From the NCBI GenBank assembly GCA_045568775.1, contig JBJLAJ010000011.1, positions 59,239 to 123,238 of the forward strand: a stretch of DNA of 64,000 nt, written 5' to 3'. Position 1 is the stretch's first letter. Each line of letters starts with the position of its first letter. The position numbers and the translations under genes are program-made. Shown piece by piece: positions 32,200 through 60,890 of this stretch. Below the pieces are notes generated by a model. It was not told the DNA's origin, searched no databases, and was given only the letters and a program-made list of their open reading frames with translations. This DNA is from Cytophagales bacterium. Lineage in GTDB: Bacteria; Bacteroidota; Bacteroidia; Cytophagales; MED-G16.

Positions 32200-32218
32200 A
32201 AACTGTTTATTAAAATTT

Positions 32219-36085: not shown

Positions 36086-36112
36086 TTGATTATATTTTTA
36101 AGTTATAAATAT

Positions 36113-43285: not shown

Positions 43286-44029
43286 TTATATTAATAACTC
43301 AATACTACCAAACTCAAAATCTTTAATTTTATCATTAACCATAAGCGAAATCTTGCCATCATCTTTTACATCAACAATTTTACCTAAAAATCTTTTATTT
43401 AAAGATTTATAGTTTAGGAGTTCATTATAACCATATAATTTTTCCTTATACGATATTTTTTTTGCAGTATTTATTTCAAAATATTCCTTATTGAAGCTTG
43501 ATTTAAATAAACTTAAAATCTTACTCCTATCCATTTTTTTATTCACTTCTTTAAAAACTGAAGTGGCATTTATATCCCCAAAATGATTTTGATTAATATT
43601 AATACCAACTCCTATAACTGACCTTTTTATTTTCTTTTTAAAAATCTGACTCTCGATTAGAATACCACATATTTTTTTCTTATTGATATATATATCATTT
43701 GGCCATTTTATTTTGATATTACTAAGACCAATTTTTTTTAAAACATTATAAATTGATAATGAAGTTATGATATGAAGTAAAAATTGATCAGATAATTTTA
43801 TTTCAGGAAATAGAACAAAAGAGAAAAGAAGATTTTTCCCTCTTTTAGATTCCCATGAATTGTTTCTTTGGCCCTTACCTTTTGTTTGAAAATCAGCACG
43901 AACCATTGAGCCTTCTTTTATCTTATTTTTTAATAATAATTGTATTAAAAAGTCATTTGTTGAGAGACATTCTGTCACATAAACATTAGTTTTGTCTTCA
44001 AATAGATTTTTGGCAGGTTTTTTGCTCAT
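43286..44029 (-). CDS. birA: biotin--[acetyl-CoA-carboxylase] ligase (no DNA-binding domain)
   Basis: 247 aa. Contains QTKGKGQRNNSWES, KWPNDIYINKKKICGILIE and GVGININ. Confidence 0.88.
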   Translation of the reverse strand: MSKKPAKNLFEDKTNVYVTECLSTNDFLIQLLLKNKIKEGSMVRADFQTKGKGQRNNSWESKRGKNLLFSFVLFPEIKLSDQFLLHIITSLSIYNVLKKIGLSNIKIKWPNDIYINKKKICGILIESQIFKKKIKRSVIGVGININQNHFGDINATSVFKEVNKKMDRSKILSLFKSSFNKEYFEINTAKKISYKEKLYGYNELLNYKSLNKRFLGKIVDVKDDGKISLMVNDKIKDFEFGSIELLI

Positions 44030-44057
44030 ATAATTATATAATATTTAGCAATATATA

Positions 44058-44432
44058 TTGAAATTAAATCAAAATATAAATTCAAGTAGACTTAGCTCTT
44101 ACATCGCCGATTGTATGGAAAACAAAAAGGCAGAGGATATAAGAATAATTGATTTAAAAAAAATTAAAAACTCAGTTACTGATTATTTCGTTTTAGCTAC
44201 GGGTAACTCTAACACACATGTTGATTCAATTGCAGATGGAATTGAAGCTGATGTTTATAAAAAATACAAAGAGAGACCTTGGAAAAAAGAAGGTAAAGTT
44301 AATAGTGAATGGGTGCTAATTGATTTTGTAAATGTTGTTGCTCATGTATTTGATGAGGAGAAAAGAAATTTATATAACTTAGAAACATTATGGGGAGATG
44401 GAATAATTAAAGATTTTAAATCAAAAAAATGA
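44058..44432 (+). CDS. rsfS: ribosome silencing factor RsfS
   Basis: 124 aa with a TTG start. Contains [29 protein letters not shown] and [15 protein letters not shown]. Confidence 0.9.
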
Positions 44433-46423
44433 AAAAAAATTCTAATAATAAACTAATTAATAACAACTTCAATAACCAGATATGGGTTGTATTTTTAATT
44501 TCTATATTCATCTATCTTTCTTTTAGTTTTTTTTCCACAAATCCTATCACTATCGATTATAATCGATTCCAAAAAATGATTAGGAGCCATGATATATCAA
44601 AAATAGTAGTAATAAAAAATCAAGAAATAATTGAAATATCATTAAAAGAAGAAGCTCTACTTAATTCAGCTTATAAAGATGAGTTAGAGTCTTCTAGTTT
44701 ACTTAATAATACATATGGCCCTCATTATAGGCTTGAAGTTTCATCAATAGAATCTTTTGAAAAAAGATATGATGACCTAATTAGTTCACTTGGAAAAGAA
44801 AATACATATGAAATAGAATATTTAACCGAAAAAAGAACAGACATATATTCTTTTTTACAGACTTGGGGTTTTACAATATTAATTCTAATTGGTTTTTGGT
44901 TCTTACTAAGAAGGATGTCTACAGGAGGAGGCCCAGGAGGTCAAATTTTTAATATTAGTAAGTCAAAAGCTTCGTTATTTGATAAAGAAAGTAAAATAAA
45001 ATTATCTTTTAAAGATGTAGCAGGATTAGACGAGGCTAAGGAAGAAGTTAAAGAAATAGTAGAATTCTTAAAAAATCCTAAAAAATTTACAAAATTAGGT
45101 GGGAAAATTCCTAAGGGAGCTATACTTGTTGGATCACCAGGCACTGGAAAAACACTATTAGCTAAAGCCGTTGCAGGTGAAGCACATGTTCCTTTTTATT
45201 CCTTATCTGGATCTGATTTTGTTGAAATGTTTGTTGGTGTTGGTGCTGCTAGAGTAAGAGACTTATTTAAAAAAGCAAAAGAAAAAGCTCCTTGTATTGT
45301 GTTTATTGATGAAATTGATGCAATAGGTAGAAGCAGAGGAAGAGGCCAAATGCCAGGTTCAAATGACGAAAGAGAAAATACACTTAACTCATTATTAGTT
45401 GAGATGGATGGATTTTCAACTGACTCTGGAGTTATTATTTTAGCTGCGACAAATAGGCCAGATGTTTTAGATTCCGCATTACTTAGACCTGGAAGATTTG
45501 ACAGACAAATTTCAATAGATAAACCTGACCTCAAGGGAAGAGAAGAAATTTTTAAAGTTCATGTGAGACCTTTAAAATTAAATACTGATGTAAATGTTAA
45601 GAATTTAGCAGCTCAGACTCCGGGATTCGCTGGAGCAGAAATTGCAAATGTATGTAATGAATCTGCATTAATTGCTGCAAGAAAGGATAAAACATCTATA
45701 GAAATGTCAGATTTTCAAGACGCAATTGATAGAGTTATTGGTGGCCTAGAAAAGAAAAATAAAATTATATCACCAGAAGAAAAGAAAATAGTTGCATACC
45801 ATGAGGCTGGCCATGCTGTAGCAGGTTGGTATCTAGAACACGCTGACCCATTAGTGAAAGTTAGTATTGTACCAAGAGGAATAGCTGCTCTTGGTTATGC
45901 TCAATACCTTCCTAAAGAACAATATCTCTATCAAACCGACCAGTTATTAGACGATATGTGTATGGCACTAGGAGGAAGGGCAGCTGAAGAAATAGTTTTT
46001 GGTAAGATATCCACTGGAGCATTAAGTGACTTGGAAAGAATAACTAAATTGGCATACAGTATTGTTTCCGTTTATGGAATGAATAAAAATATAGGTAACA
46101 TTTCATTTTTTGATTCTAAACAGTCTGACTATAATTTTACTAAACCATACTCTGATTCTACAGCTGAAAAGATTGATTCTGAAGTCAAAAGAATTGTTGA
46201 CAACGCATACGAAAGAACAAAGAATTTACTATTAGAGAAGAAAGAGCAGTTAGAGAAAATAGCAAAAAAACTTCTTGAAAAAGAAATCTTATTTCAAAAT
46301 GATCTTGAGGAACTCATTGGTAAAAGACCATTTAAAAGTACTTTAGAAATAGAGAAAGAAGTTGATAATAATGATATTAAAGGAAATGAAACTGATCAAC
46401 CTTCAATTAAAGAAGAAGAATAA
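44429..46423 (+). CDS. ftsH: ATP-dependent zinc metalloprotease FtsH
   Basis: 664 aa. Walker [14 protein letters not shown], Walker [31 protein letters not shown], Zn site HEAGHAV. Confidence 0.98.
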
Positions 46424-47141
46424 AGCATATTTTGCTGGTGACTTTCATCTAGGAAGACCTAATAAAGAATCATCATCTAATAGAGAAAAAAAAATAATTT
46501 CCTGGTTAAATAATATTAGTAAAGACGCTCAAGAAGTTTTTCTGATGGGAGATGTTTTTGATTTTTGGTTTGAATATAGAAATGTCATCCCTAAAGAGAA
46601 TTTAAGATTTCTTTCTACTATTTCTAGATTAATAGATCAAGGAGTTAATTTTCATTATTTTTTAGGTAATCGTGATATGTGGGTTCTGAACTACTTTCAA
46701 GAACTTGGAATAAAAGTGTACGATAAACCTCAAAAATTTCTTTTAAATAAAAAAAACATTCTTGTAGGCCATGGTGATGGAATAGGGAAAGGTGATTTAG
46801 GCTTTAAATTTCTAAAGTTAATTTTTAAAAATAAAATCTGTCAATTTTTATTCAGATGGATTCACCCTGACATTGGAATACCTCTCGGAAAATTTCTCTC
46901 AGGTTCAAAAAAAATGATGAATATTTCAGAAAACGCAAAACAAAATGATAAAAGAATTATAGATTATTGCATAAAATATAGAAAAGAAAATAACATTGAT
47001 GTCTTTGTTTTTGGTCATAGTCATGTCAGAACTAAGAAAAAACTATCTGAAGGTTGTTATTATTTTAATTGTGGAGAATGGATGACAGGTTCGCCTTACC
47101 TTGAATCTGATGGAAAAAATTTTGAACTGAAGTCGAGCTAA
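46386..47141 (+). CDS. lpxH: UDP-2,3-diacylglucosamine diphosphatase
   Basis: Metallophosphoesterase motifs [25 protein letters not shown] and GHSH. The track starts at TTG 46362. I prefer ATG 46386 (ATG 46371 is also possible). All candidates overlap the ftsH end, so the start is uncertain. Confidence 0.8.
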
Positions 47142-48118
47142 CCTATAGATTTTAAAAGTTCATTTCTTTGTTTCTCCCTCAATTCTATCTCAGCTAAATT
47201 ATTATTAGACATTATAAGTGATTTAAGTTCCTCATTTAGATCTTTAAAATTATTTAATTGATTAGGAGTAAATGAGATGTCTAATTTTGAAATATTATTT
47301 TCCAGATCATAACCTAGTTTAGTTAAAATATTGTTATTGATTGACTCAAAAATTAACAGTTCCTTTTCGCTCAATTCTTTTTTGAACTTTTCTTTATTAT
47401 TCCTAATTAACGGCTTTGATAAATTCTCCCATAATCCACCAGAATCTGAAGCTTTCTTAGATTCATTAGATAAATAAAAGTTTAAAAAATCTTTATTATA
47501 CTTAATATCATACTTTATACAAAGATTATTTAGAACCATAGCTGGATCTTCAAGTAAGTCCTCATACTTCACAGAAAAAAAATTTTCAATAGGTGTATTT
47601 TTTTTAATATTATCACAAATAACCTGATCAGAATACCATTTTTTTGCAAGAAAATATATGTGCTTATCACCAATTGGAGCTTTTTTAAAAGAAGAAGCAA
47701 CATCTCTCCCGTCTCTATATATATATATATAAATAGGATTCAAATTTTGAAATTCTTTGATATTATAGAACTTAAAGTTTTGGAGACTTTTACAGCACCA
47801 AAAAGTGGGATTATTATATGTATATATTGCCCTAAATATTTCAAAAAGGTTCCTGTTCTCAATAGAGCTTAAGATTCTTTCAGGAGTTGGTAAATCGCTC
47901 CATTTAATTGGATTATTTTTGATCCATATCAACATATCATCAATCAATCTTTGTGTGTTTTTCCTATTATCTAGATTATTGTATTTATCTATCAAAGGAT
48001 AAAATGTATTAAGTAAATGGGGAGGATGAGGAGCAAAAACATTTTCAAACTCATTTAGCATCAATCTAAACAAATTAGATCCAGATCTTTGAGTTCCAAT
48101 TATTTGAAAAAATTTCAT
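47138..48118 (-). CDS. sulfotransferase family protein (PAPS-type fold)
   Basis: 326 aa with no signal peptide. 5'-PSB-like loop IIGTQRSGSNL and 3'-PB-like YRDGRDVASSF. Its stop overlaps the convergent lpxH stop (CTAA). Confidence 0.8.
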   Translation of the reverse strand: MKFFQIIGTQRSGSNLFRLMLNEFENVFAPHPPHLLNTFYPLIDKYNNLDNRKNTQRLIDDMLIWIKNNPIKWSDLPTPERILSSIENRNLFEIFRAIYTYNNPTFWCCKSLQNFKFYNIKEFQNLNPIYIYIYRDGRDVASSFKKAPIGDKHIYFLAKKWYSDQVICDNIKKNTPIENFFSVKYEDLLEDPAMVLNNLCIKYDIKYNKDFLNFYLSNESKKASDSGGLWENLSKPLIRNNKEKFKKELSEKELLIFESINNNILTKLGYDLENNISKLDISFTPNQLNNFKDLNEELKSLIMSNNNLAEIELREKQRNELLKSIG

Positions 48119-48121
48119 TGA

Positions 48122-49291
48122 TTATATTTCTAAAAAGTATCCTAAGAGTCCAAAAGTTAAAATTAAAAACAATGGGTGGATTTTAGTTTTATTTAAAATA
48201 ATAAAAGAAAATATACATATAGAAATACTTAAAACATTAAAAGATTCTAATTGTTTAAACATAATTATATAACCAGAATAATATATTAATCCTATTATAC
48301 CAATTTTAAACCCTTTAATAATGAGTTTCACAGTATTATTTTTTTTCACGAAGTAATACACCCTAGAAAAAAAAATAATTACAACAGAAGAGGGCAAGAA
48401 TATAGAAAGTGTTGAAATAAAAGCTCCTGTTATTCCATTAATCTTATATCCGATAAAAGTTGCTGTTATTAAAATAGGGCCTGGAGTTATTTGACCCATA
48501 GCGATAGAGTCAATAAATTCTCTTTTTGTAAGCCATCCAATTTGTTCAACAATAATTTTATCGAGATAGGGTATAAACACATATCCTCCCCCAAATAATG
48601 TGAGAGAGATATTAGCAAAAACTTTTGAAAGATTAAAATTAAGGGAATTAATAGGTGCATTATTCAAAAAAACAAATAGTAGAATCATAATTAATGAAGC
48701 AATAACAATTCCCTTTATCCTTATAAATGCTTTCTTGGGGTTAGTAATTTTTTTTATTTTATCTCCATTATAAAGTAAGTTAAGACCACCGCATATCAGC
48801 AATGGCAAAATGATTGAAATATAGCCTTTTATTAATGAGGTCAGAGCAAAACTTAAGATTACAAGTAGAAGTGAAAATATTTTGTCTTTTGAGTCTTTAT
48901 AAAACCCAAATCCAACAGAAAAAATAACTGCTGAAACAACAGGCATTACTCCATCAAAGAATGATGAGAAACCAGGAATATTTCTAGAGTTTAGATATAG
49001 ATGTGAAAATATCACCATTATAATAAATGAAGGAAGTAAAACTCCAATAAATGATATAACAGCTCCTTTCCATCCTCTAATTAGAAACCCAATATAAGAC
49101 GCAACATTTATAGCCATTGGGCCAGGCAGAAAACTTGCCATTGTAATTGCATCTAATATTTTTTTTTTGCTTAAAATTTTTTTTCTGACAGAGAACTCAT
49201 GTTGAATCATAGCTATCAACATCATATAACCACCGAAAGATATTGTCCCTGTTTTTAAAAAAGTAAAGAATAATTTAAAATAACTCATCAA
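48122..49291 (-). CDS. chrA: CHR-family (chromate ion transporter-like) membrane protein
   Basis: 389 aa, duplicated-domain polytopic protein. Contains FLKTGTISFGGYMMLIAMIQHE and, in the second half, SLTLFGGGYVFIPYLDKIIVEQ...GQITPGPI. Confidence 0.8.
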   Translation of the reverse strand: MMSYFKLFFTFLKTGTISFGGYMMLIAMIQHEFSVRKKILSKKKILDAITMASFLPGPMAINVASYIGFLIRGWKGAVISFIGVLLPSFIIMVIFSHLYLNSRNIPGFSSFFDGVMPVVSAVIFSVGFGFYKDSKDKIFSLLLVILSFALTSLIKGYISIILPLLICGGLNLLYNGDKIKKITNPKKAFIRIKGIVIASLIMILLFVFLNNAPINSLNFNLSKVFANISLTLFGGGYVFIPYLDKIIVEQIGWLTKREFIDSIAMGQITPGPILITATFIGYKINGITGAFISTLSIFLPSSVVIIFFSRVYYFVKKNNTVKLIIKGFKIGIIGLIYYSGYIIMFKQLESFNVLSISICIFSFIILNKTKIHPLFLILTFGLLGYFLEI

Positions 49292-49329
49292 AATCTTTTT
49301 GAAGCTCTAAACAATACCTAGAATTAAAT

Positions 49330-50643
49330 TTACAATAACTTTTTATTGTCAATATAATATACTCTATAAAATGAATGATCACTTGATAAATTCCATAAAA
49401 TTTTTCCTGAAATATCAGATATTATTGTTTTATTATTTACTGAACTTGAAAAAAGATAATTTTCATCATCAATTAAGTAAACACTACCCTGCTTGAAAGT
49501 AAATAAGTTATCTGGAAGGAACACACTCTTTTCATGATTAAATTTTTTATTTATCTCATCTAAAGAGAAAACAAGAGCTCGTGATGACTTCCTATATTCT
49601 GACGACCCATTATCAAAGAGCATATATTGACTTTTGTTAACCTTATGTATTGCATGTTGTTGATAGAAAACATCTTTATTATCTAAATTAAAATCACCTC
49701 CTTTTCCTAGTCTCCACATTACATCTCCACTAATAGAATTAATTTTCCAAATTTGATCAAAATTTCTAAATGAAATAAGATAATTCCCATCAGAATCTAT
49801 ATCAATTCCATTTCCATGACTCCAATCATCACGGATTAAATATTGTTCTCTATCCGGTTCTATATGATCAAAAATATTCCATCTCCATATTTTCTCGCCA
49901 TTTTCATCATATACAACAATCCCATCACCCATTAAGGAATCAATTCCATTTTTATAATAATTATAGTATTCATATGTAAGGCCAACAAAATATGATTTTT
50001 TGTTTTCACTAAATTTTAAAATATCATGGTGAAAACTATGTGAGTTAGAAATTTTTGAAAATAATGTGTCACCTTCAAAGCTTACTTCATTAATAATATT
50101 TCTCTTTGATAAGGAAATATAAGTGTTTTTTAATCCTATATTAAATGGTCTAGATAAGACTGAATCACTAATACTATACCATACAATTTCGCCATCATCA
50201 TCCATCATAAACTGAATACCAGGATCTTCTTGAGTTCTAAACAAAAGAAAACCATCAAAAGAAAATGAAGAGTCTTTTACTAAATCAAAAGAAGGAAAAA
50301 CATTTGGTAGACTTCTTGTCTTAAATGAATATAAAATAGAAGAATTAATATTTTCTGATTTTGAAAATTCATTTATTTTAAACAAATAATTGGATGATGG
50401 TTTTAGATAAGGTAATACTATATCAAAAGAATCTCCCTGATAAGTCAAAGAGGAAATAACCTCATTTTGATCTAACCAATATGAGATGTTTGTTGATGTA
50501 TTAAAATCTGTTTTAAAGTTCACATGATATTTTGAATGATTGTAACCTGGTAAATCAACTGAGACCTGACTGAAATTATTTTTTTTAGAGCAAGATATTA
50601 CTAGAAATAAAATAAGAAATGAATAGTTTTTAGAAATCATCAT
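49330..50643 (-). CDS. arylsulfotransferase (ASST) family lipoprotein
   Basis: 437 aa. Lipobox LFLVISC-SKKNN. N-terminal beta-sandwich followed by propeller-type repeats. Contains the ASST-like stretch DWSHGNGIDIDSDGNYLISFRNFDQIWKINSISGDVMWRLG...QQHAIHKV...MLFDNGS. Confidence 0.7.
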   Translation of the reverse strand: MMISKNYSFLILFLVISCSKKNNFSQVSVDLPGYNHSKYHVNFKTDFNTSTNISYWLDQNEVISSLTYQGDSFDIVLPYLKPSSNYLFKINEFSKSENINSSILYSFKTRSLPNVFPSFDLVKDSSFSFDGFLLFRTQEDPGIQFMMDDDGEIVWYSISDSVLSRPFNIGLKNTYISLSKRNIINEVSFEGDTLFSKISNSHSFHHDILKFSENKKSYFVGLTYEYYNYYKNGIDSLMGDGIVVYDENGEKIWRWNIFDHIEPDREQYLIRDDWSHGNGIDIDSDGNYLISFRNFDQIWKINSISGDVMWRLGKGGDFNLDNKDVFYQQHAIHKVNKSQYMLFDNGSSEYRKSSRALVFSLDEINKKFNHEKSVFLPDNLFTFKQGSVYLIDDENYLFSSSVNNKTIISDISGKILWNLSSDHSFYRVYYIDNKKLL

Positions 50644-51910
50644 TTAAAATAATTTTAGTAGATCTTGCTGAGCCATCTTCAAAATGGATCAAAAGTAAAT
50701 GAATACCAACAGCTAAATTATTAAGTTTTAATATAATTTTTTTATGGTTATCATTAATATTCTTAGAAAAAATAATTTCACCTGATAAATTAAAGAATTC
50801 TATTCTATCAATATTTTTAGAAGTTTCGTTTAGTACAATTAAATTTCTATTTGGAGGTAAGGGATTAGGGTACACAGATACTATATTATCTATAAATTCA
50901 TTTCCTGCTACAATACTTTTCTCTTCAAATAAAAGTTGCCCCTTTGCAAAAGCGTCTTCACCTATATTCTTACCCATTATTCTGCCAGGGATATCATCGA
51001 TATAAGGATGAATTCCTCCCCAAATACGAGAAAGAGAACATTGATCAGCAGCATCTCTGTATGTTGCCCACTGTAATTTCATATCAACAGAGGGTCCTTT
51101 TTCAAAGACAAGAAAATTATTTTTAGGGATGATAAATTCTCCAATTCCACCTGGAAAGAATTCATTTCCAGTTAATTTTTCTAATATTATTGCAGCTGCA
51201 CTAGAGTATGTTGAATGCCCTGAAATATATCCTGCAAATGGAGGAGTAACAAAACTTGGTCTTTGATATGGCCACCAATTTTCTGCAAGTATCCACCCAA
51301 CTCCTTTCTCGACATCAGTAGAATCAGCTTCATTAAATCCTTTCCAAGTGAATAATTTAACTTTTCCTAAATTCTTATTATTATCTCCAACTAGAGGGTC
51401 ATTGATTGAAACCATTTCTATATATCCATCAATTAAAGGGAACCCATTTGGGCTGTAATTTGTTGAATCTTTATAAGTAGACTGCCCATTTTCAGATAAA
51501 TATCTGATAACAGAAATTGGCCTAGCATAATCATAATATCCTTTTGATCCCCACGCAGAAATTGCAGCATCATGCATAGCTCCACCCATTAAAAAATAAG
51601 ATTTTATATCCCAATCAAGTCTATCTAACTCTTGTCCTGTTCCCTTAAATTTTCTTATTAGATCATCATCATCATTTACTTCATTTAATATTACAAACCA
51701 ATGTCCAGGAGGTGTCTCGGAATCAGGTCCATCAGCCCAGAATTCAGCAAGAACTCTTGTGTAATCACCCCTTGGCACAATTTGTTCTGTGTATTTCTGG
51801 TTATTAAAGGGATTTATCTCATGTCCAAGACCTATATCTCCACCATCAAAATAATTATATAGATTATGATAGTCTAAAAAATCATTAGGGTAAGAAGTTA
51901 GAGTTTCCAA
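50630..51910 (-). CDS. vanadium-haloperoxidase-like PAP2 domain with T9SS C-terminal sorting domain (3' portion of a split gene)
   Basis: 426 aa, opening at a TTG with no signal peptide. Contains AEFWADGPDSETPPGHW and a complete PAP2 triad: K-x6-RP (KGYYDYARP), SGH (YISGHSTYS) and SR-x5-H-x3-D (SRIWGGIHPYIDD). Tail VSVYPNPLPPNRNL...LLLIHFEDG. Its N-terminal domain half lies in the upstream ORF. Confidence 0.8.
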   Translation of the reverse strand: METLTSYPNDFLDYHNLYNYFDGGDIGLGHEINPFNNQKYTEQIVPRGDYTRVLAEFWADGPDSETPPGHWFVILNEVNDDDDLIRKFKGTGQELDRLDWDIKSYFLMGGAMHDAAISAWGSKGYYDYARPISVIRYLSENGQSTYKDSTNYSPNGFPLIDGYIEMVSINDPLVGDNNKNLGKVKLFTWKGFNEADSTDVEKGVGWILAENWWPYQRPSFVTPPFAGYISGHSTYSSAAAIILEKLTGNEFFPGGIGEFIIPKNNFLVFEKGPSVDMKLQWATYRDAADQCSLSRIWGGIHPYIDDIPGRIMGKNIGEDAFAKGQLLFEEKSIVAGNEFIDNIVSVYPNPLPPNRNLIVLNETSKNIDRIEFFNLSGEIIFSKNINDNHKKIILKLNNLAVGIHLLLIHFEDGSARSTKIILNDDF

Positions 51911-54701
51911 TCGAATTAGGAGATATATCTAGAAGAACCCCGTCAGACCTATCAAGATGAGCCCCCCAAACTGACACCATAGAAAATGAATTTTTAAATA
52001 AGGAATCTAATTTACCTTGATTTAAGGTGTCAAGAAGAGGCGGTGGCCCAGGATCATGATAAATTTTATAGATATTATCATCTCTCAACTTAATAACTAA
52101 GTCTTCTTCTTTGAGAGCAAAAGGGGTCACGTTTCCCCATTCTGGGGAAATAAATTCAGGAATCCCCTCAATTAAGTTTCCTGACTGATCAATAAAATTT
52201 GAAATCTTTAGTGGTTGCCATCTATTAGGATCTATAATGTCAGGGTTACCATAAGTATCTAAATCAAGTGGCGGATTAAGCGGTGAATAATAGTTACTCG
52301 AGTAATCATTTACCTCATTTGAATTATCAAGAAATCCATAATCTGAATATATTTTATTTAAATAATTCCCTATAGATCTTGGGTCACCTGACAAATAATC
52401 TAACTTATCATAATTGATATCATAATCTAATGTTATCATGAGTGAGTCTACTCTTTTATAAGTATCAATTATACCAACTGATTTTTTAAATCTGTGTCTT
52501 ATGAAATTATATGAAGCATAAGAAATGATTTTTTCTATATATTCATCATCATGAACATATGTAGGGTATTCGAAAGGATAGTTAGTTTCATTAATAGTTT
52601 TATCGAGTAAAAAAGGAGTTATATTTTTATTATTAATTAATTTTTCCTTGATAACAAATGCATCATACATTACTGAAGAAAGGTGAAACAAGTTTCTAGC
52701 ATGAATAGGTGGTCTTGCTAAATCATCCCTAATTGCTTGTAATAACACTTCCATCCATTTTCTCGCAATAGACTGACTAGTAAAGTCACTGTTTCCTGAA
52801 TTTTTAAGTAGATTTTTAATCTCAAATGTTTTAGTTAAGTGACATCCTTTTTCATCTCTTACAGTGATTGAGTGTGTACCTGAACTTATATTAGAAAATA
52901 TAAATTTATTTTTAAAGTATGTTCCTCCGTCTAATGATAAATAATAATCATTATCTAAGTTGATGTTATTTATCTGAATTGAGCTAGTGTGCTGGTTCGT
53001 AATATCTTTGACAATAACATCAAAATCTGGGGGAGATGTTTTTTCAATTATTATAGTATCAGAAGAGAACATAGCACCGTATTCATCATAAACATTAACA
53101 AAATAATTTCCACCTTGACTAATACTTATATTTTGAGTTGTATCTCCTGTAGACCATTGGTATCTATGATAGTAACCAGTCTCTAAGGATAACAGACTTC
53201 CATCACAAAAAGAATCACTAACTGAATATATCTTTGGAATTAAAGAAGTAGAGCCCTCGTTTATAGTGATCAATCTATTTCCTTCTATTTGATAAAAAGC
53301 ATCAATCTCTCCAGATGGCCAATACACTTTTAAACTATCAACTGTTTGGCTGTTGCCAAGACCAATAAATAAAGTATTAGAGTTCTGTGAAAGGTAACCC
53401 TCTGTAGAAAATTTACCGCGTGTTATAGTTTTATCTTCAACATAAATAACTACCCTTGATCCATACGCATCACTATTTGAGTTGAAACCAACTAAATTAA
53501 CTTTTAGCCAGTTATTAGTTCCAGAGTAAATATTTTTAAAAAGGAAGGAATTAAAAGGCTCCATGTTTAATACTACAATATCAGGATAACCATCATTATT
53601 TATGTCTCCTACTGCATTCCCATAACTAGATACAGTATCAGAATCTAAGCCTACTGAAATATTTTGCTCAAAATATTTTCCAAAAATATTTGAATAATAC
53701 GCACTAGAATTCACATTAGACCCAACAAGAGACCCACTTACATAAAGGTCCTCATACCCATCTAAATCAAAATCTTCAAACTGAGCTCCCCATCCCTCAG
53801 CATTAAAAGGGACTCCTTTTTCATCAGCACGTTCTGTAAAAGTAAGATCTTGATTATTTACAAATAACTTATTTCCTTCTTCTAAATTTGTAGAATAGAT
53901 ATCAAAAAAAGAATCATTATTAAAGTCTCCTACCGTCACTGACATAGCATCCATCTTAACACCAGTATTAGACTGAGTACTTATATTTGAAAAAGTAGAA
54001 TCTAAATTATTGTAGTAAAGGGAGTTCCCAGAAGACTTATCATTAGCAATGTAAAGATCTTGGACATTATTATTATCTATATCTATAAAAGTAGCACAGA
54101 AAGGTAACTTGTTAATCTCTGAAATAGATGAAATGTTAGTTATATCAATAAAAGATTTTCCTTCATGGTTTAAGTATAAACTTACAGTATTATTTATACT
54201 ATCTCCTGACCTGTATGTCTGCAATAAATCTAGGTATCCATCATTATTAATATCAGACCATGAGGAACCAAAAGAGTTTGAAACAGAATCTGGTAAATTA
54301 ACAGAAGACGTTATATCAATAAAATTAAGAAATCCATTGTTCTCATAAAGTTTATTTTTACCACTAAATGAAGAAACATACAAGTCTTTATCAAAATCAT
54401 TATCAAAATCAATCCAAAGTACTTGCTTTATTTGATAAGGAAAGTCAATGCCAAAAGACAAAGGATATAATTTGTCTCCATTATTTTTTAAAAAAAGTAT
54501 GGAAGTATTTCCATTCGTCGGTATTGTTATATCATCTAACCCGTCTAGATCAAAGTCAACAAAACTTACACCAGCACCTGAAACTCCTTGAAGATATGAA
54601 TGATTGAAATCAAGAGATGAAGATATCTCATTGAAATATAGTTGTGAGAATAATGGGTATTTAGTAGCGAGTAAAATAAAAAAAATAAGATATTTTTTCA
54701 T
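51885..54701 (-). CDS. FG-GAP/VCBS repeat + ASPIC/UnbV (CRTAC1-like) protein carrying the N-terminal half of the haloperoxidase-like domain (5' portion of a split gene)
   Basis: The track starts at TTG 54719, but ATG 54701 gives the signal peptide MKKYLIFFILLATKYPLFSQ. Repeated FDLDGLDD / INNDGYLD / FNNDSFFD / INNDGYPD FG-GAP calcium loops. UnbV motif GSRVVIYVED...GYLSQNSNTLFIGLG...VYWPSG. Ig-like modules. Then ARKWMEVLLQAIRDDLARPPIHARNLFH...NRWQPL...ISPEWGNVTPF. Confidence 0.8.
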   Translation of the reverse strand: MKKYLIFFILLATKYPLFSQLYFNEISSSLDFNHSYLQGVSGAGVSFVDFDLDGLDDITIPTNGNTSILFLKNNGDKLYPLSFGIDFPYQIKQVLWIDFDNDFDKDLYVSSFSGKNKLYENNGFLNFIDITSSVNLPDSVSNSFGSSWSDINNDGYLDLLQTYRSGDSINNTVSLYLNHEGKSFIDITNISSISEINKLPFCATFIDIDNNNVQDLYIANDKSSGNSLYYNNLDSTFSNISTQSNTGVKMDAMSVTVGDFNNDSFFDIYSTNLEEGNKLFVNNQDLTFTERADEKGVPFNAEGWGAQFEDFDLDGYEDLYVSGSLVGSNVNSSAYYSNIFGKYFEQNISVGLDSDTVSSYGNAVGDINNDGYPDIVVLNMEPFNSFLFKNIYSGTNNWLKVNLVGFNSNSDAYGSRVVIYVEDKTITRGKFSTEGYLSQNSNTLFIGLGNSQTVDSLKVYWPSGEIDAFYQIEGNRLITINEGSTSLIPKIYSVSDSFCDGSLLSLETGYYHRYQWSTGDTTQNISISQGGNYFVNVYDEYGAMFSSDTIIIEKTSPPDFDVIVKDITNQHTSSIQINNINLDNDYYLSLDGGTYFKNKFIFSNISSGTHSITVRDEKGCHLTKTFEIKNLLKNSGNSDFTSQSIARKWMEVLLQAIRDDLARPPIHARNLFHLSSVMYDAFVIKEKLINNKNITPFLLDKTINETNYPFEYPTYVHDDEYIEKIISYASYNFIRHRFKKSVGIIDTYKRVDSLMITLDYDINYDKLDYLSGDPRSIGNYLNKIYSDYGFLDNSNEVNDYSSNYYSPLNPPLDLDTYGNPDIIDPNRWQPLKISNFIDQSGNLIEGIPEFISPEWGNVTPFALKEEDLVIKLRDDNIYKIYHDPGPPPLLDTLNQGKLDSLFKNSFSMVSVWGAHLDRSDGVLLDISPNSIGNSNFLP

Positions 54702-54710
54702 CACTCTAAA

Positions 54711-54748
54711 AATAAACAAAAAAAAAGGTAACGACTTACGCCGTTACC
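54711..54748 (-). terminator. rho-independent terminator after the SusCD-lipoprotein operon
   Basis: Minus strand reads GGTAACG-gcgtaagt-CGTTACC followed by TTTTTTTTGTTTATTTTT. It lies 38 nt after the lipoprotein stop, and the T-tract ends about 10 nt before the next ATG (54701). Confidence 0.65.
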
Positions 54749-54785
54749 CTTTTAAATCATATATGTAAATATATGTAGTACCTAG

Positions 54786-55718
54786 TTAGTTCAAGTCAGG
54801 CCAATTCTGTCCATCATTTCTGGTAAGTACAGAAACGGCACCTTCACCATAGTCATTAGTCCAATCAATAGTTAGCGCATTACCTGTTGAGCTAACATCA
54901 TGAAATGTATAAACTTCTGACCATCTAGAAGCACCTACTGGTGATAAAATACCACAAGCATCTTGTACTTTAAGTGTTCCACCTGGATTAGTTGAACCGG
55001 CTCCGTAACAAGCTAAATAGATTCCCCAGTCAAACTGACCAGCAGGCTCTATATATAAGTTGTCACCACCAGATTTAACCCAAGAACCAGAGTAGTTTGA
55101 AGTTGCAGTACAACCCCATCCACCTTGGCCAACACTTACTGCGTCCCAACTTGACTCAAGGTCAGAAGGACACACGACAGAAACGTTAAGTCTATATAAT
55201 GCACCAAATGCATTAGAAGACTGTAAGTTTGGTCCTGTATTGTTATAATCGTAAGTAGTACCATCAGACTTAGTTATAGTAAACCAAAATCTGAAGTAGT
55301 TACCGCCATCAATACCAGTAATATCTTTCCCTACTGCTGCCATAGTAGCAGAAAAAGTTAAACTGATGTCATTACTAAGGTATCCATCAGCATTCTTTAC
55401 GAATTCTGACGAAGATATAGTTCTGAATTGAGTTCTGGCAACACTATTAGCGCCACCACCGATAACGTCCACATATTCTACATCAATATCAAACTCAGTG
55501 ATATTTCCACCCTGAGCTTCATCATAATATTCTACATGCATGTCAATTGAAGAACCAGCTACATCGAAGTAATTGAATTTACCAGTCTGTGACATCTTTC
55601 TAGCGTATGCACCATATTGCATTTCTGGAAAAAGTTCAACCGGTAAAACAGGATCACCACATGATATAGCAGTTGTCATTGCTATGAATGCTACGAATAA
55701 CTTTTTTAAATTTTTCAT
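54786..55718 (-). CDS. hypothetical surface lipoprotein in the SusE/F position of the locus
   Basis: 310 aa. Lipobox MTTAISC-GDPV. The C-terminal half carries 5 further Cys (CPSD, WGCTA, LACYGAG, DACG). I recognise no family. Lies 18 nt downstream of susD. Confidence 0.6.
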   Translation of the reverse strand: MKNLKKLFVAFIAMTTAISCGDPVLPVELFPEMQYGAYARKMSQTGKFNYFDVAGSSIDMHVEYYDEAQGGNITEFDIDVEYVDVIGGGANSVARTQFRTISSSEFVKNADGYLSNDISLTFSATMAAVGKDITGIDGGNYFRFWFTITKSDGTTYDYNNTGPNLQSSNAFGALYRLNVSVVCPSDLESSWDAVSVGQGGWGCTATSNYSGSWVKSGGDNLYIEPAGQFDWGIYLACYGAGSTNPGGTLKVQDACGILSPVGASRWSEVYTFHDVSSTGNALTIDWTNDYGEGAVSVLTRNDGQNWPDLN

Positions 55719-55736
55719 AATTGTTTTAATTTAAAA

Positions 55737-57464
55737 TTAGTTTAATGCACCAGCTCTATCCCAGAAAACTTTCTCACCAAGATCTGTTCTAACAGGAGCG
55801 TTTTTGTTCAAGTTAGAGAAATCTGATGGATACGGGAACAACCTTGGAAAAGTACCAGCGTCAGGAGTCTTCATAGGACCCTGCATCTCAGTTGGATGAC
55901 CAGTTCTTCTCATAGCATTGTACAATTCGACACCGTTAGAGAATGAAGCGAGCCTATGCTCTTTAACAATGATATTCATCTTTGCTTCATTATCAGATGC
56001 GGCATCATACGCACTCAATACATAATTGACATAAGCGTCAATACTTCTTTGTTCAGGAATTGCACCAATTCCGTCACCATTGAAGTCACCAACTTCACCC
56101 CATCCTGCAGAGTAACTCATTACAGAACCAATAGAAGTTGTTAACGCTGTTTCTAACATATCTCTAGCATTTTCACCAGATAAACCATCAAGAGCAGCTT
56201 CAGCTCTCATGAAGTATACGTTAGCAGACATAAGGATCGGAGCGTGTCCGTCTCCTCCGCCTCCATCAACACCACCATGTTGAGTATGAGAAATCCCACT
56301 ACCAAATGTATTAGTTGCAGCATCACCGTCATCATAAGCACCAGCAGCTGGATAAATCCCTCTGTGTGTTCTTTTCTGACCATCTGGAGGAGTACCATCG
56401 TTATTACCGTGGTCTCTTCCCCAGTAACCTTTCGCATTAGCAGCATCAATAGTTGTTGTACTACTTCCTGCACAGAAAGGCCATGTTACTGTAACACCAT
56501 ATGCATTTGTGTAAGGATTGTCATACCATACTGGTCTAGTATCAGGTATCACACAATCAATTGTAAATAAATCTTCACCTACAATATTCAAATCTTGTCT
56601 TTTGTAATAGTATCTAAGTCTTGGATCAGGAATACCCTTTTCTTCCATTAACTCCCACATGTAGTAGTTAGATTGATATGGACCAGAATATGATTCATAC
56701 GATCCACCATACCATGGGTGTCTAGAGTCTGGGTTTTGTCTATTACTTCCGTATTTAAACACCCAATCTTCAGATTTATCGTCTATTACACCAGCAGCTA
56801 AAGCAGCAGCAATTTTACCAGCATCACCTCTGTTTAGAGCAGCTCTAAACTTAAGAGTATTTGCTAAAGTTATCCACTTTGCTTTATCACTACCATAGTA
56901 GATGTCCACAGTTGGAGCACCAATGGCAGTTTTGTTAAGATCTGCAATTGCTTCGTCATATAATCCCTCAACAGCTGTGTATACAGATTCTGCATCATCA
57001 ACTACAGGACTAAGATTAGCAGTTCCTTGCCATGCTTCACTATAAGGAATAGCACCGTGCTTGTCAACAAGCATTTGAAGAGCATATCCTTTTAAGATTT
57101 TACCAGCACCTACGTGAATCCAAGATTCAGCAGCAGTACCAGATTCAATCATCGCGTCGATGTCAGGAACAAGTCCAGAATAAACAGTATTCCAAGATCC
57201 ATTAAAACTTGAAGATAGATAAGCGTTGTCATAGGTTTCACCCCACGTCATACACGCAACTCTAGCTACTTGGAGCATTGGAGTTTGATTTCCGTACCAC
57301 CATCCAGCAAAACTTGTCTGAACAGCATTCCAGTATAAATCAAGACCTGCATTCTCAACAGTCACAGCATTCGGGTTATTTAACTGATCTAATTCAGTTA
57401 TTTCACACGAGTAGCCAACAAACATGAAGGCAACAATCAAGTATAATTTGTTTAATTTTTTCAT
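55737..57464 (-). CDS. susD: SusD/RagB family nutrient-binding outer-membrane lipoprotein
   Basis: 575 aa. Lipobox FVGYSC-EITELD with an acidic post-Cys segment. Helical SusD-like N-terminal region (WNAVQTSFAGWW...). Lies 19 nt downstream of susC. Confidence 0.85.
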   Translation of the reverse strand: MKKLNKLYLIVAFMFVGYSCEITELDQLNNPNAVTVENAGLDLYWNAVQTSFAGWWYGNQTPMLQVARVACMTWGETYDNAYLSSSFNGSWNTVYSGLVPDIDAMIESGTAAESWIHVGAGKILKGYALQMLVDKHGAIPYSEAWQGTANLSPVVDDAESVYTAVEGLYDEAIADLNKTAIGAPTVDIYYGSDKAKWITLANTLKFRAALNRGDAGKIAAALAAGVIDDKSEDWVFKYGSNRQNPDSRHPWYGGSYESYSGPYQSNYYMWELMEEKGIPDPRLRYYYKRQDLNIVGEDLFTIDCVIPDTRPVWYDNPYTNAYGVTVTWPFCAGSSTTTIDAANAKGYWGRDHGNNDGTPPDGQKRTHRGIYPAAGAYDDGDAATNTFGSGISHTQHGGVDGGGGDGHAPILMSANVYFMRAEAALDGLSGENARDMLETALTTSIGSVMSYSAGWGEVGDFNGDGIGAIPEQRSIDAYVNYVLSAYDAASDNEAKMNIIVKEHRLASFSNGVELYNAMRRTGHPTEMQGPMKTPDAGTFPRLFPYPSDFSNLNKNAPVRTDLGEKVFWDRAGALN

Positions 57465-57483
57465 TATATATAAAATTTAAAAA

Positions 57484-60400
57484 TTAGAAAGTTAAACTTA
57501 AAGTAGCTCCCCACTTCTTAGCAGTAGGACCAGTCATCTCATCCCATCCTCTAGCATTAGAACCAGCACCGTAACTTATAACCTCAGGGTCAAAATTTGA
57601 TCCTGCAGGGAAGTTCCATGCATAATGCCAGATGTTCTGAGCAGACATAGTTAAACTAGCACTTCCAAAAGGAGTTCCACTAAGGAACGACTTAGGCGCA
57701 ACTAAAGAAAGAGAAACCTCTCTTATTCTCATTACAGAAGCATCATACATTGAGTTTTCATCATAGAATACACCAGTATTTGGCCAGTAGTGAGCGTTTG
57801 CAGTAGTTTGCTTAACGTTAGGAGATCCGTCATTTGTCAGACCTTTTGTAACGATTGGAACAAACCTATCAAAACCTGTTTCCTCAAGGATACCTCTACC
57901 AAGTAGAGTAGAACTAGTAGTAGAGAATACATCTCCACCTACAGAAGAATCGAACTGAACTCTTGCTGTTACCCACTTATATGTTAACGTATTAGTAACA
58001 CCATAAACATAGTCAGGGTTTGGATCACCAATTACACCATAACCAAGTTGCTGATATCCACCATTTGAGTTAACAATAGGAGTATAGTTTAATCTATCAT
58101 CCCAGTTAACCTGTAAATGATCAGTTCCGTCAAGGCTACCATAGTCTCTCTTGATTACATCACCTTCCATTATACCATAAGGTAGTCCTGGGATAGCGAT
58201 ATTACCTCTACCAGTATATCCACCAACATAAATTTTATCAACTCCATCAGCAATAGATAGTACCTCACTTCTCAATATTGAGAACTGTCCAGCTATTTCC
58301 CAAGTAAAGTCTCTCGACTGAACAGGAATTACTGAAACGATAGCTTCTATCCCTTTGTTATTGATAGATGCTGAGTTAACAGTTGATGATGTATAACCAG
58401 TAGATGCATCAAGATCTAAGTCTATAATAAGATCTTCTGAATCTTTAGTAAATAACGACAAGTCTAAACCAACTTTATTTTGAAAGAATTTACCTTCAAT
58501 ACCGAACTCAAGCTCCTTATGAATCTCAGGAGTTAAATCAGGGTTAGCAAAGAAATTACTTACAGCATTTGAATTTAACAACGCACCACCTGAAGTTTGG
58601 AAAATCTTAGTATATGTATTAAGTGATCCTCTCGTAGAATATGGAGGAGGATAACCTGCAGACGTTCCGAAACCAAATCTAACTTTCAAGAAGTTAAGGT
58701 TTTGATTGCTAATAGACAATGCTTCTAAAGGTAAAATAGATACTGATACAGATGGGTATAGGAATGATCTGTTTGCTTCTTCTAAAGTAGAAGTCCAGTC
58801 ATTTCTAGCAGATGCTGATAAGAATCCCCAGTCTCTATAACCAAGAGTAAGGTTAGCATATGCACCATAAGTATTTTCTCTTAATACGTAAGTATTTGCA
58901 TTAGTCACTGTAAAGTTTTGATGATCGAAGAAGTTATATATAAACATATCAGAACTAGTTATCTGAGATAATTCATAATTTCTAGACTGTAAGTTTCCAC
59001 CTACTAAGAAATCAAAATCAAGATCTTCAGATAATTCTACTGATCCGTTTAAGTTTACAACTTGATCATAATTTATATTATTTCTATTGGACGTAGCATA
59101 ATGGCCAAGAACAGCATAGCCTTGAACTCCATTCTTATTAATCATGTAGTTGTTTAGCATATTAGTTCTATCAAGACCTAGTCTATACGTCAGATTTAAA
59201 AAGTCAGCTATCTCATAACTTAAAGTAATGTTACCGATAAATCTGTTAACATCATCTCTATCCTTAGTGTTATGTAGAGTCCATAAAGGATGTTGCATCC
59301 CGTTATTACCTCTATAATAAACACTACCATGAGTATCTGGTCTTTCGTATTCCATTCCAAATAAGTTCCAACTTCTAGGAGTATACATAACATTACCAAA
59401 TAATGATACATTGGTAGCGTTTGAGTTTCTACTCGGGTTTACAGGTGGCTTATTACTTTGTGATTCAATATAATTGAATGAAGCATTAATTTTTAAACCG
59501 TTTGCAAGCTGAGTATTAGCCCCTAACGAGAAATTATGTTTTCTATAATCGTTGAATGGAACATATCCGTTGTCTTTAGTCCAACCATAATTAGCTTTTA
59601 TTGATGATGAACCAACTTGAGCGTTGACACCAATAGAAGTATTTTGTTGAGAACCGTCGACAAAGAAATTCTGTAAATTGTCATATGCCTGGTATTTCCA
59701 TCTAGCACCTACGTACTGAGGGAATACACCATTCCATATGGCTCTGTCATAAGGGTGCTTAATAGTACCATCAGTCAAACCGTTTCTGTTAGGTTGGTCA
59801 AATGGAGCTCCCCAGTTACTAAATGCAGCTGCGGCTCTATTTTGCCATCCGTTACCATACTGATCTTGATCATCTGGTACACTAGCTACCTGATTCACAA
59901 AATATGATTGACTAAATGTTACTTCTAATCCTTTATTAGCATTAGACCCACCAATTTGGCCAGTCTTTGTTGTAATAAGGATCACACCATTTCTACCAGC
60001 TTCACCGTAAAGTACGGTTGCAGCAAGTCCCTTAAGCACACTAATTTCCGCTACGTTGTTTGGATCAAGATCTAAGAATCTACTAGAAGCAGTAGCACCA
60101 CCACCAGTAAAACCTCTATCCCTATAAGTTGATGCATCAATTGGCACACCATCTAAAACGAATAAAGGCTGATTAGAACCTGAAATTGAGGTATATCCCC
60201 TAATAATAATATTAGTTCCAGTTCCAGTGACACCACTTTGCGATGTGATATCAACACCAGGAACTTTACCTCTCAACAACCTAGCTATGTCTGCTTCGGG
60301 TCTAGCTTCAAGCTGTTCACCACCAACAGAAGTCACCGCATATCCTAATGCAGCTTTTTCTTTGGTGATACCCAATGCAGTTACAACAACCTCTTGAAGT

Positions 60401-60696
60401 TCTTCAACATCAGAGCTCATAACTACATCCACCACTGATCTAGAGCCAATTGCAATTTCTTGCGACGCTAAACCAATAAATGAAAATACTAAGGTACTTC
60501 CGTCACTAGGAACATCTAGTGAATAGGAACCGTTGACATCTGTAGTAGTACCAACAGTTGTACCTTGAAGGATAACGTTAACACCAGGAAGACCACTTCC
60601 GTCTTCATCAGATGATACCGTACCCGAGATAGTTCTGTCTTGAGCCCAAACATTTGAAGCCAAAAACAAGAAACTAACTAGTATAAATCTAAACAT
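57484..60696 (-). CDS. susC: SusC/RagA family TonB-linked outer-membrane transporter
   Basis: 1070 aa. Signal peptide. Carboxypeptidase-regulatory-like domain (ISGTVSSDEDGSGLPGVNVILQGTTVGTTTDVNGSYSL). Plug region (VVVTALGITKEKAALGYAV, NIIIRGYTSISGSNQPLFVLDGVPI). Ends in aromatic LSLTF. No N-terminal STN signalling domain. Confidence 0.93.
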   Translation of the reverse strand: MFRFILVSFLFLASNVWAQDRTISGTVSSDEDGSGLPGVNVILQGTTVGTTTDVNGSYSLDVPSDGSTLVFSFIGLASQEIAIGSRSVVDVVMSSDVEELQEVVVTALGITKEKAALGYAVTSVGGEQLEARPEADIARLLRGKVPGVDITSQSGVTGTGTNIIIRGYTSISGSNQPLFVLDGVPIDASTYRDRGFTGGGATASSRFLDLDPNNVAEISVLKGLAATVLYGEAGRNGVILITTKTGQIGGSNANKGLEVTFSQSYFVNQVASVPDDQDQYGNGWQNRAAAAFSNWGAPFDQPNRNGLTDGTIKHPYDRAIWNGVFPQYVGARWKYQAYDNLQNFFVDGSQQNTSIGVNAQVGSSSIKANYGWTKDNGYVPFNDYRKHNFSLGANTQLANGLKINASFNYIESQSNKPPVNPSRNSNATNVSLFGNVMYTPRSWNLFGMEYERPDTHGSVYYRGNNGMQHPLWTLHNTKDRDDVNRFIGNITLSYEIADFLNLTYRLGLDRTNMLNNYMINKNGVQGYAVLGHYATSNRNNINYDQVVNLNGSVELSEDLDFDFLVGGNLQSRNYELSQITSSDMFIYNFFDHQNFTVTNANTYVLRENTYGAYANLTLGYRDWGFLSASARNDWTSTLEEANRSFLYPSVSVSILPLEALSISNQNLNFLKVRFGFGTSAGYPPPYSTRGSLNTYTKIFQTSGGALLNSNAVSNFFANPDLTPEIHKELEFGIEGKFFQNKVGLDLSLFTKDSEDLIIDLDLDASTGYTSSTVNSASINNKGIEAIVSVIPVQSRDFTWEIAGQFSILRSEVLSIADGVDKIYVGGYTGRGNIAIPGLPYGIMEGDVIKRDYGSLDGTDHLQVNWDDRLNYTPIVNSNGGYQQLGYGVIGDPNPDYVYGVTNTLTYKWVTARVQFDSSVGGDVFSTTSSTLLGRGILEETGFDRFVPIVTKGLTNDGSPNVKQTTANAHYWPNTGVFYDENSMYDASVMRIREVSLSLVAPKSFLSGTPFGSASLTMSAQNIWHYAWNFPAGSNFDPEVISYGAGSNARGWDEMTGPTAKKWGATLSLTF

Positions 60697-60890
60697 AGTT
60701 TAATTTTAATTTAATTAATAATTGTTTAACAATAATATCCCGCGATTTTGAACATTTTTCACCAAAAAAGGAGAAAAAAGCCTAAAACACAGTCACGCCT
60801 CCCTACCCAAAATCTTCATTTAGAGCAAGGAAACTAATATTTTAAGGTTTTTTAACAAAAAACCCGATAGCTATTTTAACAATTATTAGA

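Follow-up and report, generated by a model that had tools for sequence, protein, structure and literature searches.

A private single-nucleotide insertion, rather than programmed +1 frameshifting, very probably splits a predicted haloperoxidase-like gene at a CCC-TAA stop

Introduction

The +1 frameshift of prfB takes place at CUU UGA C, where a P-site codon able to re-pair stands before an in-frame stop of the weak, RF2-specific UGA-C type and an SD-like element lies upstream, and both the frame break and the heptamer are conserved across phyla. In Flavobacterium johnsoniae, the prfB frameshift reaches only about 7% (PMC10798248). Slippage of tRNA-Pro on CC[C/U]-[C/U] sequences (m1G37/EF-P) is a translation error with a rate of at most about 1%, in most cases far below that, and not an expression mechanism (PMC4519876). 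Compensatory frameshifting of 'savior' or problem indels is known from cases that are backed by experiment and for which a selective reason can be given (Atkins et al. 2016, PMC5009743). Frameshifted genes that occur as singletons, with both halves matching intact homologues, have been classed as sequencing errors or indel mutations (PMC3711429).

Here we analysed a frame break within a 64-kb stretch of DNA (the window), for which the initial annotation had offered a recent one-nucleotide indel, an assembly error or programmed +1 frameshifting at CCC-TAA-T. Single-frame relatives that lack one base support the first two options, and the break is almost certainly a private one-nucleotide insertion and not programmed recoding.

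Results

The frame break in the window

Re-reading of the window sequence confirmed a frame break on the minus strand and bore out every earlier statement about the letters themselves, namely the stop of the upstream frame, the +1 position of the downstream frame, the overlap at 51888-51928, the TTG start and the homopolymer-free overlap. The features of the break are as follows.

51885..54719, minus strand: upstream ORF, 944 aa from TTG 54719 (Pfam and translation)
50630..51928, minus strand: downstream reading frame (+1), which opens after TAG 51931..51929
51888..51928, minus strand: zone of 41 nt open in both frames, within which any frame switch must fall, as the extra base described below does
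51885..51890, minus strand: shifty-stop candidate CCC TAA, an out-of-frame reading of the in-frame TAC CCT AAT (Tyr-Pro-Asn)

The 944-aa upstream ORF ends with the codons AAC TTC TTA CCC TAA, and the TAA (51887..51885) is directly followed by a second stop, TGA 51884..51882. The earliest start codon of the downstream frame is TTG 51910, and a signal peptide of its own is absent from this frame. The longest homopolymer within the overlap is 3 nt.

Position of the extra nucleotide

Pairwise blastn and MAFFT alignments with relatives placed the frame change at a single nucleotide, and removal of this nucleotide restores one gene.

51902..51903, minus strand: single extra nucleotide between the Asn and Leu codons of IGN/LTSYP
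50630..54701, minus strand: restored single gene, 1356 aa after removal of one base at 51902/51903, collinear with full-length orthologues

A protein-guided metagenome scan recovered three independent contigs of the same species, L084 (99.2% nucleotide identity over 4.4 kb), L085 (98.7%, 6.8 kb) and L164 (99.80%, 11.4 kb), all of which are single-frame at the junction; in each comparison, exactly one nucleotide accounts for the disrupted frame of the window. At this site, the window has AAC-T-CTA, while L084 and L085 read AAC CTA and L164 reads AAT CTA; in the wider context, GGAAAC-T-CTAACT in the window stands against GGAAAC-CTAACT or GGAAAT-CTAACT in the relatives. The extra base is T51902 relative to L084 and L085, or equivalently C51903 relative to L164, against which it forms the only gap in 11,428 aligned nucleotides. 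With the base removed, the sequence becomes IGNLTSYPNDFLDY, identical to that of L084, L085, L164 and L004, and the restored junction IGN-LTSYP-NDFLDY matches the relatives exactly. The initial annotation had predicted a SNFLP-NDFLDY junction produced by a slip at CCC-TAA; this prediction is wrong, since the frame switches at the extra base, 14-15 nt upstream of the TAA stop, and after that base the upstream ORF consists of five out-of-frame codons (S N F L P) followed by the stop.

Continuity of the gene in relatives

More distant orthologues are likewise uninterrupted. L004 (94% amino acid identity), L005 (87%) and L006 (83%) carry continuous ORFs of 1368-1371 codons from stop to stop, L007 and L001-L003 (70%) are in one frame across the junction, and L086-L090 and about 8000 database proteins are single-frame at the same point, so that no orthologue examined, from 99.8% nucleotide identity down to 50% amino acid identity, has a frame break. 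At the family level, the conserved Pro is preceded by L in 34, Y in 25 and F in 24 of 85 equal-length homologues, and this mixture means that SNFLP (frame A) and LTSYP (frame B) are not cleanly separable there; at the level of sequence, the junction is decided only by close relatives and DNA alignment.

The closest homologues on record include proteins of 853 and 977 aa (P0001-P0009), which suggested repeated breakage of the gene in this clade. This suggestion was rejected, as the short calls are consequences of gene calling and trace to a 100-N scaffold gap in L002, a one-nucleotide insertion in the pilon-polished L001, and the contig L003, in which the match to the gene is missing from the first ~290 nt. 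The L001 insertion is outside any homopolymer, lies at a Pro wobble position and is missing from L002 and L003.

Searches for the window allele elsewhere gave no match. An exact-pattern scan of JGI metagenomes with ATTGGAAACT N{0,1} TAACTTCTTACCCTAATGATTTT returned 0 matches, a pattern covering the window allele and the L004-type allele (AAC TTA), the same-species intact alleles being AAC CTA and AAT CTA. Exact look-ups of the two truncated products (426 aa and 938 aa) likewise found no record. In this limited sample of sequences, the insertion allele was thus not seen in independent assemblies of the same population.

Domains of the restored protein

The upstream ORF contains Pfam domains FG-GAP_3, FG-GAP and UnbV_ASPIC, together with FG-GAP/VCBS repeats and the first ~300 aa of a haloperoxidase-like module, while the downstream ORF contains VCPO_2nd and the T9SS Por_Secre_tail. 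Its translation shows the PAP2 motifs K-x6-RP (KGYYDYARP), SGHS and SRIWGGIHPYIDD (SR-x5-H-x3-D). The true start of the upstream ORF is likely ATG 54701, which gives a signal-peptide-like N-terminus (MKKYLIFF...); the equivalent ATG is the start of the intact L164 gene, predicted as a single protein of 1356 aa that contains every domain. Restoring the C-terminal module adds no Pfam domain, and none of the models extends across the junction; DUF6851 (PF21167) is below the Pfam threshold in the window protein but is precomputed for homologues of 50% identity. About 8000 homologues are collinear across the junction at 96-100% query coverage, indicating that one conserved module of ~720 aa is truly split, so the earlier view of one domain divided between two ORFs holds even though no Pfam model bridges them. 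Domains, collinearity and motifs identify the restored protein as a T9SS-secreted predicted enzyme of the FG-GAP/ASPIC plus DUF6851/VCPO-like (PAP2 superfamily) kind.

The CCC-TAA context

Directly 5' of the stop stands a codon, CCC, that could re-pair as CCU in the +1 frame from the P site, and the downstream +1 ORF is intact; these two features are what would speak for programmed, evolutionarily maintained +1 frameshifting that tunes the amount of full-length enzyme. Comparison with orthologues revealed that the same site is read in frame as TAC CCT AAT, TAT CCT AGT, TAC CCT AGT, TAT CCT GAT or TAC CCA GAA, with the nucleotides of the shift site varying both synonymously and nonsynonymously among codons for Tyr-Pro-Asn/Ser/Asp/Glu. 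The CCC-TAA stop therefore appears because the authentic codons at this place are TAC CCT AAT, and LTSYP, upstream of it, is already read in the downstream frame. No SD-like stretch or other stimulator was found upstream of CCC-TAA, in GGAAACTCTAACTTCTTA, and CCCTAAT is not enriched, with 6 occurrences in the window against 10 expected. The initial annotation had named orthologue alignment as one check of a programmed shift; the orthologues are uninterrupted and keep no slippery stop, and this comparison refutes programmed +1 frameshifting, which we regard as the least credible of the readings considered.

Simulation of one-nucleotide insertions in the window's long ORFs placed the first stop of the shifted frame after a median of 4 codons, compared with 5 here. 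The last sense codon before that stop was CCC in 0.55% of the simulated cases and any of CCC/TTT/CTT/GGG/AAA in about 13%, so the CCC-TAA context exceeds chance only mildly.

Decay and local assembly quality

The gene differs from that of L164 by 5 substitutions in 3,956 nt. Downstream of the break, both of the window-private changes are synonymous (2, against 0 nonsynonymous; a count of low power), and no further stops or indels were found there; the private substitutions, in 11 codons, are too few for a branch-specific dN/dS test of relaxed constraint. A long-standing pseudogene was rejected on the lack of added stops, indels and nonsynonymous private changes, in keeping with the earlier remark that the downstream part is free of long-term decay. 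No other indel was found relative to L164/L165 over about 11.4 kb, and no other gene in the window is split; a candidate second broken gene at 46424-47137 proved to be a complete gene of 259 aa on the opposite strand.

Origin of the extra base

The extra base adjoins a polymorphic Asn wobble position, which is AAC in L084/L085, AAT in L164 and AAC+T in the window, so that the 'CT' of the window consists of both population alleles (C and T) in tandem. The chance that a random insertion would mimic this arrangement is about 0.7% or less. The tandem alleles suggest that the gene of the organism is probably intact, and their place on a strain-variable wobble points to a consensus artefact. The leading explanation, to which we give about even odds, is an artefact: consensus building or polishing would have gone wrong at a site where two strain alleles present together differ in the Asn wobble base (C or T). 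Under this reading, the organism would have an ordinary single-frame gene for a secreted protein of ~1356 aa with FG-GAP/ASPIC repeats, a DUF6851/vanadium-haloperoxidase-like PAP2 module and a T9SS tail, and the window sequence would carry one nucleotide too many at 51902/51903. A ribosome on the sequence as written would read five wrong codons and then meet the first out-of-frame stop, with nothing programmed about it.

Several side observations touch on an artefact. For it, the L001 insertion described above offers a precedent, within the same gene family, of a non-homopolymer insertion at a wobble site. Against it, the region is otherwise clean, with no other indel in ~11.4 kb and no other split gene in 64 kb, and the site lies outside any homopolymer. 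Platform indel errors fall mostly in homopolymers. De Bruijn-graph assemblers cannot make k-mers absent from the reads, and an artefact would thus have to come from recurrent read errors or from consensus calling or polishing. The coincidence of alleles could also result from a real insertion, such as that of a C into an AAT-CTA ancestor.

A real, very recent, strain-private insertion that inactivated the gene is a serious possibility, which we hold at somewhat below even. The non-homopolymeric site, in an indel-free and well-assembled region, fits such a nascent pseudogene, as does the small distance to L164, which would make the lesion young and accord with the lack of decay; frameshift pseudogenes are also common and mostly singletons (PMC3711429). 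The 938/944-aa product would then keep the signal peptide but end before the T9SS sorting domain and the catalytic motifs of PAP2, the downstream part would be left without an export signal, and any +1 slips at CCC-UAA would amount to no more than translational error. This reading has to accept that the insertion hit a strain-variable site and left both alleles in tandem, with the low probability given above if the two events were independent, and that the allele is in no other assembly found, three same-species contigs being intact.

A real insertion could also be partly compensated by a +1 slip of peptidyl-tRNA-Pro at CCC-UAA-U, yielding little full-length enzyme with LTSYP replaced by SNFLP, which we regard as very unlikely. 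CC[C/U]-[C/U] is slip-prone, and in E. coli slippage can reach about 1% where its position is most favourable, but non-programmed +1 rates are typically below 0.003% (PMC4519876), and even the true prfB site reaches only about 7% in F. johnsoniae, one of the Bacteroidia (PMC10798248). Rescue of indels by compensatory frameshifting has been recognised as a category of its own (PMC5009743). The pause is prolonged by a stop in the A site, and Leu-Pro is common at the fourth and fifth junction columns across the wider family, so the substituted peptide might be tolerated; the site, however, has no stimulator, its UAA-U stop is backed by the tandem TGA, and the allele is seen in this sequence alone. 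In E. coli, termination at UAA-U is strong. In a variant of this idea, the insertion would be ancestral to the window and L164, and L164 would have reverted by deleting the neighbouring C, giving AAC>AAT, which would account for the adjacency of the SNP and the indel. The fuller version, in which a natural, newly arisen extra base is real, a trickle of full-length enzyme is made by adventitious slippage in a Bacteroidota lineage with ribosomes that ignore SD sequences, and L164 is perhaps a second-site revertant, is a shade less probable still.

Discussion

The locus carries little biological weight, and its practical value lies in annotation: the two ORFs are best merged into one gene flagged provisionally as frameshifted, and the locus is best kept off lists of recoding candidates. 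The case is also an instance of a common pitfall. Where a genome is AT-rich, any one-nucleotide insertion leads to an out-of-frame stop within a few codons, the codon before such a stop sometimes looks 'slippery', and only close relatives reveal the true place of the frame change. In population-derived assemblies, an extra base that falls on a wobble position variable among strains is a helpful sign of a consensus error.

Among known systems, prfB resembles this locus in the +1 shift needed and in the re-pairing P-site codon before an in-frame stop. It differs in its conservation, as no orthologue here has a break; in its stop, which here is UAA-U followed by a tandem UGA; and in its SD-like element and autoregulatory logic, both of which the window site lacks. 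The slippage of tRNA-Pro shares the CCC-U context (PMC4519876), though as an error of translation. Compensatory frameshifting (PMC5009743) shares an indel shortly upstream of a potentially slippery site, but the indel here is a putative one. The closest likeness is to the GeneTack singletons (PMC3711429), which also occur in one sequence only, have both halves matching one uninterrupted homologue, and show no conserved motif in the 'frameshift box' between the bounding stops; the present case is peculiar only in the location of its extra base, at a wobble position that differs among strains.

Frame break and domain layout

Analysis of the minus strand bore out the initial annotation's sequence description of the break, with the ORF ends, the +1 frame and the TTG start all present in the window (G+C, 31.8%). 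The split gene is arranged as follows.

54719..51885, minus strand: upstream ORF, 944 aa, ending ...AAC TTC TTA CCC TAA with TGA directly after; Pfam domains FG-GAP_3, FG-GAP and UnbV_ASPIC
51928 to 50630, minus strand: downstream (+1) frame, bounded by TAG at 51931..51929, first start codon TTG at 51910; Pfam domains VCPO_2nd and the T9SS sorting domain Por_Secre_tail

The PAP2/haloperoxidase motifs KGYYDYARP, SGHS and SRIWGGIHPYIDD, read directly from the translation, are all located downstream of the break.

A single extra nucleotide breaks the frame

Four same-species contigs were compared with the window. A protein-guided metagenome scan gave L084 (99.2% nucleotide identity over 4.4 kb) and L085 (98.7% over 6.8 kb), while exact look-up of the neighbouring arylsulfotransferase reached L164 (99.80% over 11,428 nt) and L165 (99.66% over 5.6 kb, gap-free). 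In L164, the gene is called as one 1356-aa protein with all domains present. Comparison of the window with L084, L085 and L164 revealed that a single extra nucleotide is the sole frame-disrupting difference, giving an allele that reads GGAAACTCTAAC (containing ACTCTA); all remaining gaps relative to L084 and L085 fall in one in-frame patch of the adjacent gene (net length difference, 3 nt).

Alleles at the extra base
Window: GGAAAC-T-CTAACTTCTTACCCTAAT, frame broken
L084, L085: GGAAAC-CTAACT..., codons AAC CTA
L164: GGAAAT-CTAACT..., codons AAT CTA

Deleting the extra base in silico yields ...DISPNSIGN-LTSYP-NDFLDYHNLY..., the same peptide as in L084, L085, L164 and the reference-genome locus L004, which places the frame change at 51902/51903, 14-15 nt ahead of the stop. 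The five residues S-N-F-L-P are out-of-frame translation, and CCC-TAA is what the shifted frame makes of the genuine codons TAC CCT AAT (Tyr-Pro-Asn). The junction proposed earlier, ...SNFLP-NDF formed by a slip at CCC, disagrees with the peptide of the relatives, LTSYP-NDF.

The in-frame patch (window 55091-55101, minus strand) is hypervariable and lies inside the 310-aa gene at 54786..55718. It combines a one-codon indel with clustered substitutions (TATSNYSGSW in the window versus TATYDSYAGSW in L084/L085), and the gene is otherwise ~99% identical.

Orthologues read through the junction in one frame

The haloperoxidase-like module, joined over the break into one protein query, retrieved ~8000 proteins at E<1e-10; of the 120 that were listed, most span 96-100% of the fused query in one chain. 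The best database proteins, with 70% identity and from the syntenic locus, read uninterrupted through ...DISPNSIGNLESYPENILEF.... A 267-aa junction query matched one 801-nt segment in each of four reference genomes.

Reference-genome loci and amino acid identity
L004: uncultured 'Marinoscillum sp.' MAG, 94%
L005: MAG, 87%
L006: Flammeovirgaceae MAG, 83%
L007: MAG, 70%

A single stop-to-stop ORF of 1368-1371 codons covers the complete gene in L004, L005, L006 and L085. The counterparts of the Tyr-Pro-Asn codons in other relatives are TAT CCT AGT, TAC CCT AGT, TAT CCT GAT and TAC CCA GAA, and no conserved shift site was found at the CCC-TAA position across the relatives compared. Programmed +1 frameshifting at CCC-TAA, one of three possibilities given in the initial annotation, is contradicted by this alignment: the relatives are single-frame, CCC-TAA is not kept as a shift site, and the frame changes elsewhere. 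We regard genuine programmed frameshifting as extremely improbable.

The syntenic locus

The 70%-identity proteins come from a locus ordered SusC, SusD, a 309-aa protein, the orthologue of the split gene, an arylsulfotransferase, a chromate-transporter-like protein and a sulfotransferase. The same order is found in the window at 43330-60700 (minus strand), with L001, L002 and L164 syntenic, and is conserved down to 70% amino acid identity.

57484-60699, minus strand: SusC-like
55737-57464, minus strand: SusD-like
54786-55718, minus strand: 310-aa protein
50630-54701, minus strand: the split gene (FG-GAP/haloperoxidase-like T9SS protein)
49330-50643, minus strand: arylsulfotransferase
48122-49291, minus strand: chromate-transporter-family protein
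47138-48118, minus strand: sulfotransferase

The locus is putatively PUL-like, with a predicted haloperoxidase-like secreted enzyme paired with two sulfotransferases. In the 70%-identity species, the orthologue is also split in public data, at another position and from technical causes. The 1.5-Mb contig L001 carries a 1-nt insertion at ~5630-5640 (TTTCC-A-TCATCG vs TTTCCTCATCG); in L002 (5785-5795), a 100-N scaffold gap starts at the same spot; and in L003, where 540-550 corresponds to that site, the first ~290 nt are unmatched to the gene. The closest database proteins, P0001-P0009, are therefore 853 or 977 aa instead of ~1360 aa.

How readily the shifty-stop context arises by chance

We simulated a 1-nt insertion at every codon of the window's long ORFs. 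The distance to the first shifted-frame stop had a median of 4 codons and a mean of 5.6 (5 in the actual case). CCC was the final sense codon in 0.55% of cases, and any of CCC/TTT/CTT/GGG/AAA in ~13%. The window contains CCCTAAT 6 times, where ~10 would be expected. No SD-like stretch was found in the sequence 5' of CCC-TAA, and the stop is TAA-T with TGA as backup. UAA-U is a strong termination context in E. coli. Even the genuine prfB site gives only ~7% frameshifting in Flavobacterium johnsoniae (PMC10798248), and CC[C/U]-[C/U] slippage reaches ~1% at best, with typical non-programmed +1 errors <0.003% (PMC4519876). Slippage at CCC-TAA, if it occurred, would give the junction peptide ...DISPNSIGNSNFLPNDFLDYHNLY... 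as opposed to the termination product.

Origin of the extra base

The extra base adjoins a site at which the same-species contigs differ, L084/L085 having C and L164 having T; in the window the two stand one after the other, C first. The chance of a random insertion placing both alleles in tandem is ~0.7% or less, and this arrangement counts for an artefact, to which we assign about an even chance. Four further observations point the same way: the insertion allele was not seen in any other assembly searched (metagenome pattern scan and truncated-product look-ups); the downstream 1.25 kb contains no stops, indels or private nonsynonymous changes; the pilon-polished L001 has a comparable 1-nt insertion, likewise outside any homopolymer, at a Pro wobble position of the orthologous gene, absent from L002 and L003; and the GeneTack study assigned singleton frameshifts to errors or indel mutations when intact homologues validated them (PMC3711429).

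A real, recent and private insertion is a serious competitor, put at somewhat below an even chance. In its favour, the site is not a homopolymer, no further indel separates the window from L164/L165 in ~11.4 kb, the 64-kb window has no second split gene, and de Bruijn assemblers are unable to invent k-mers. The apparent ribosomal-protein (S10/spc/alpha) operon, fusA/rpsG/rpsL and rpoB/rpoC, recognized by ORF sizes and order at ~9200-20900 and 27865-36097, are all uninterrupted, which speaks indirectly against a general tendency of the assembly to indels. The synonymous AAC>AAT of L164 (about 2855) sits exactly beside the window's extra T at 51903. As an alternative to an artefact, this change may have been left behind when a base was inserted and its neighbour was later lost in compensation in the L164 lineage; a real insertion with such a revertant history, or with meaningful compensatory slippage, is very improbable.

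Consequences and comparison with known recoding sites

If the lesion is real, the domain layout suggests an upstream product that retains the signal peptide but has neither the T9SS sorting domain nor any of the PAP2 motifs, and a downstream part without an export signal, so that the gene would be null except for error-level slippage. It is best to annotate the two ORFs as a single gene with a frameshift (54701..50630, minus strand), subject to reads at 51895-51910.

The sole likeness to a prfB-type shifty stop is a re-pairable P-site codon before the stop. Unlike in programmed recoding, neither the break nor the shift-site nucleotides are conserved, stimulators are absent, and the shift site does not coincide with the true frame change. 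With its split at 51902/51903, the gene belongs among the ordinary singleton frameshifted genes.
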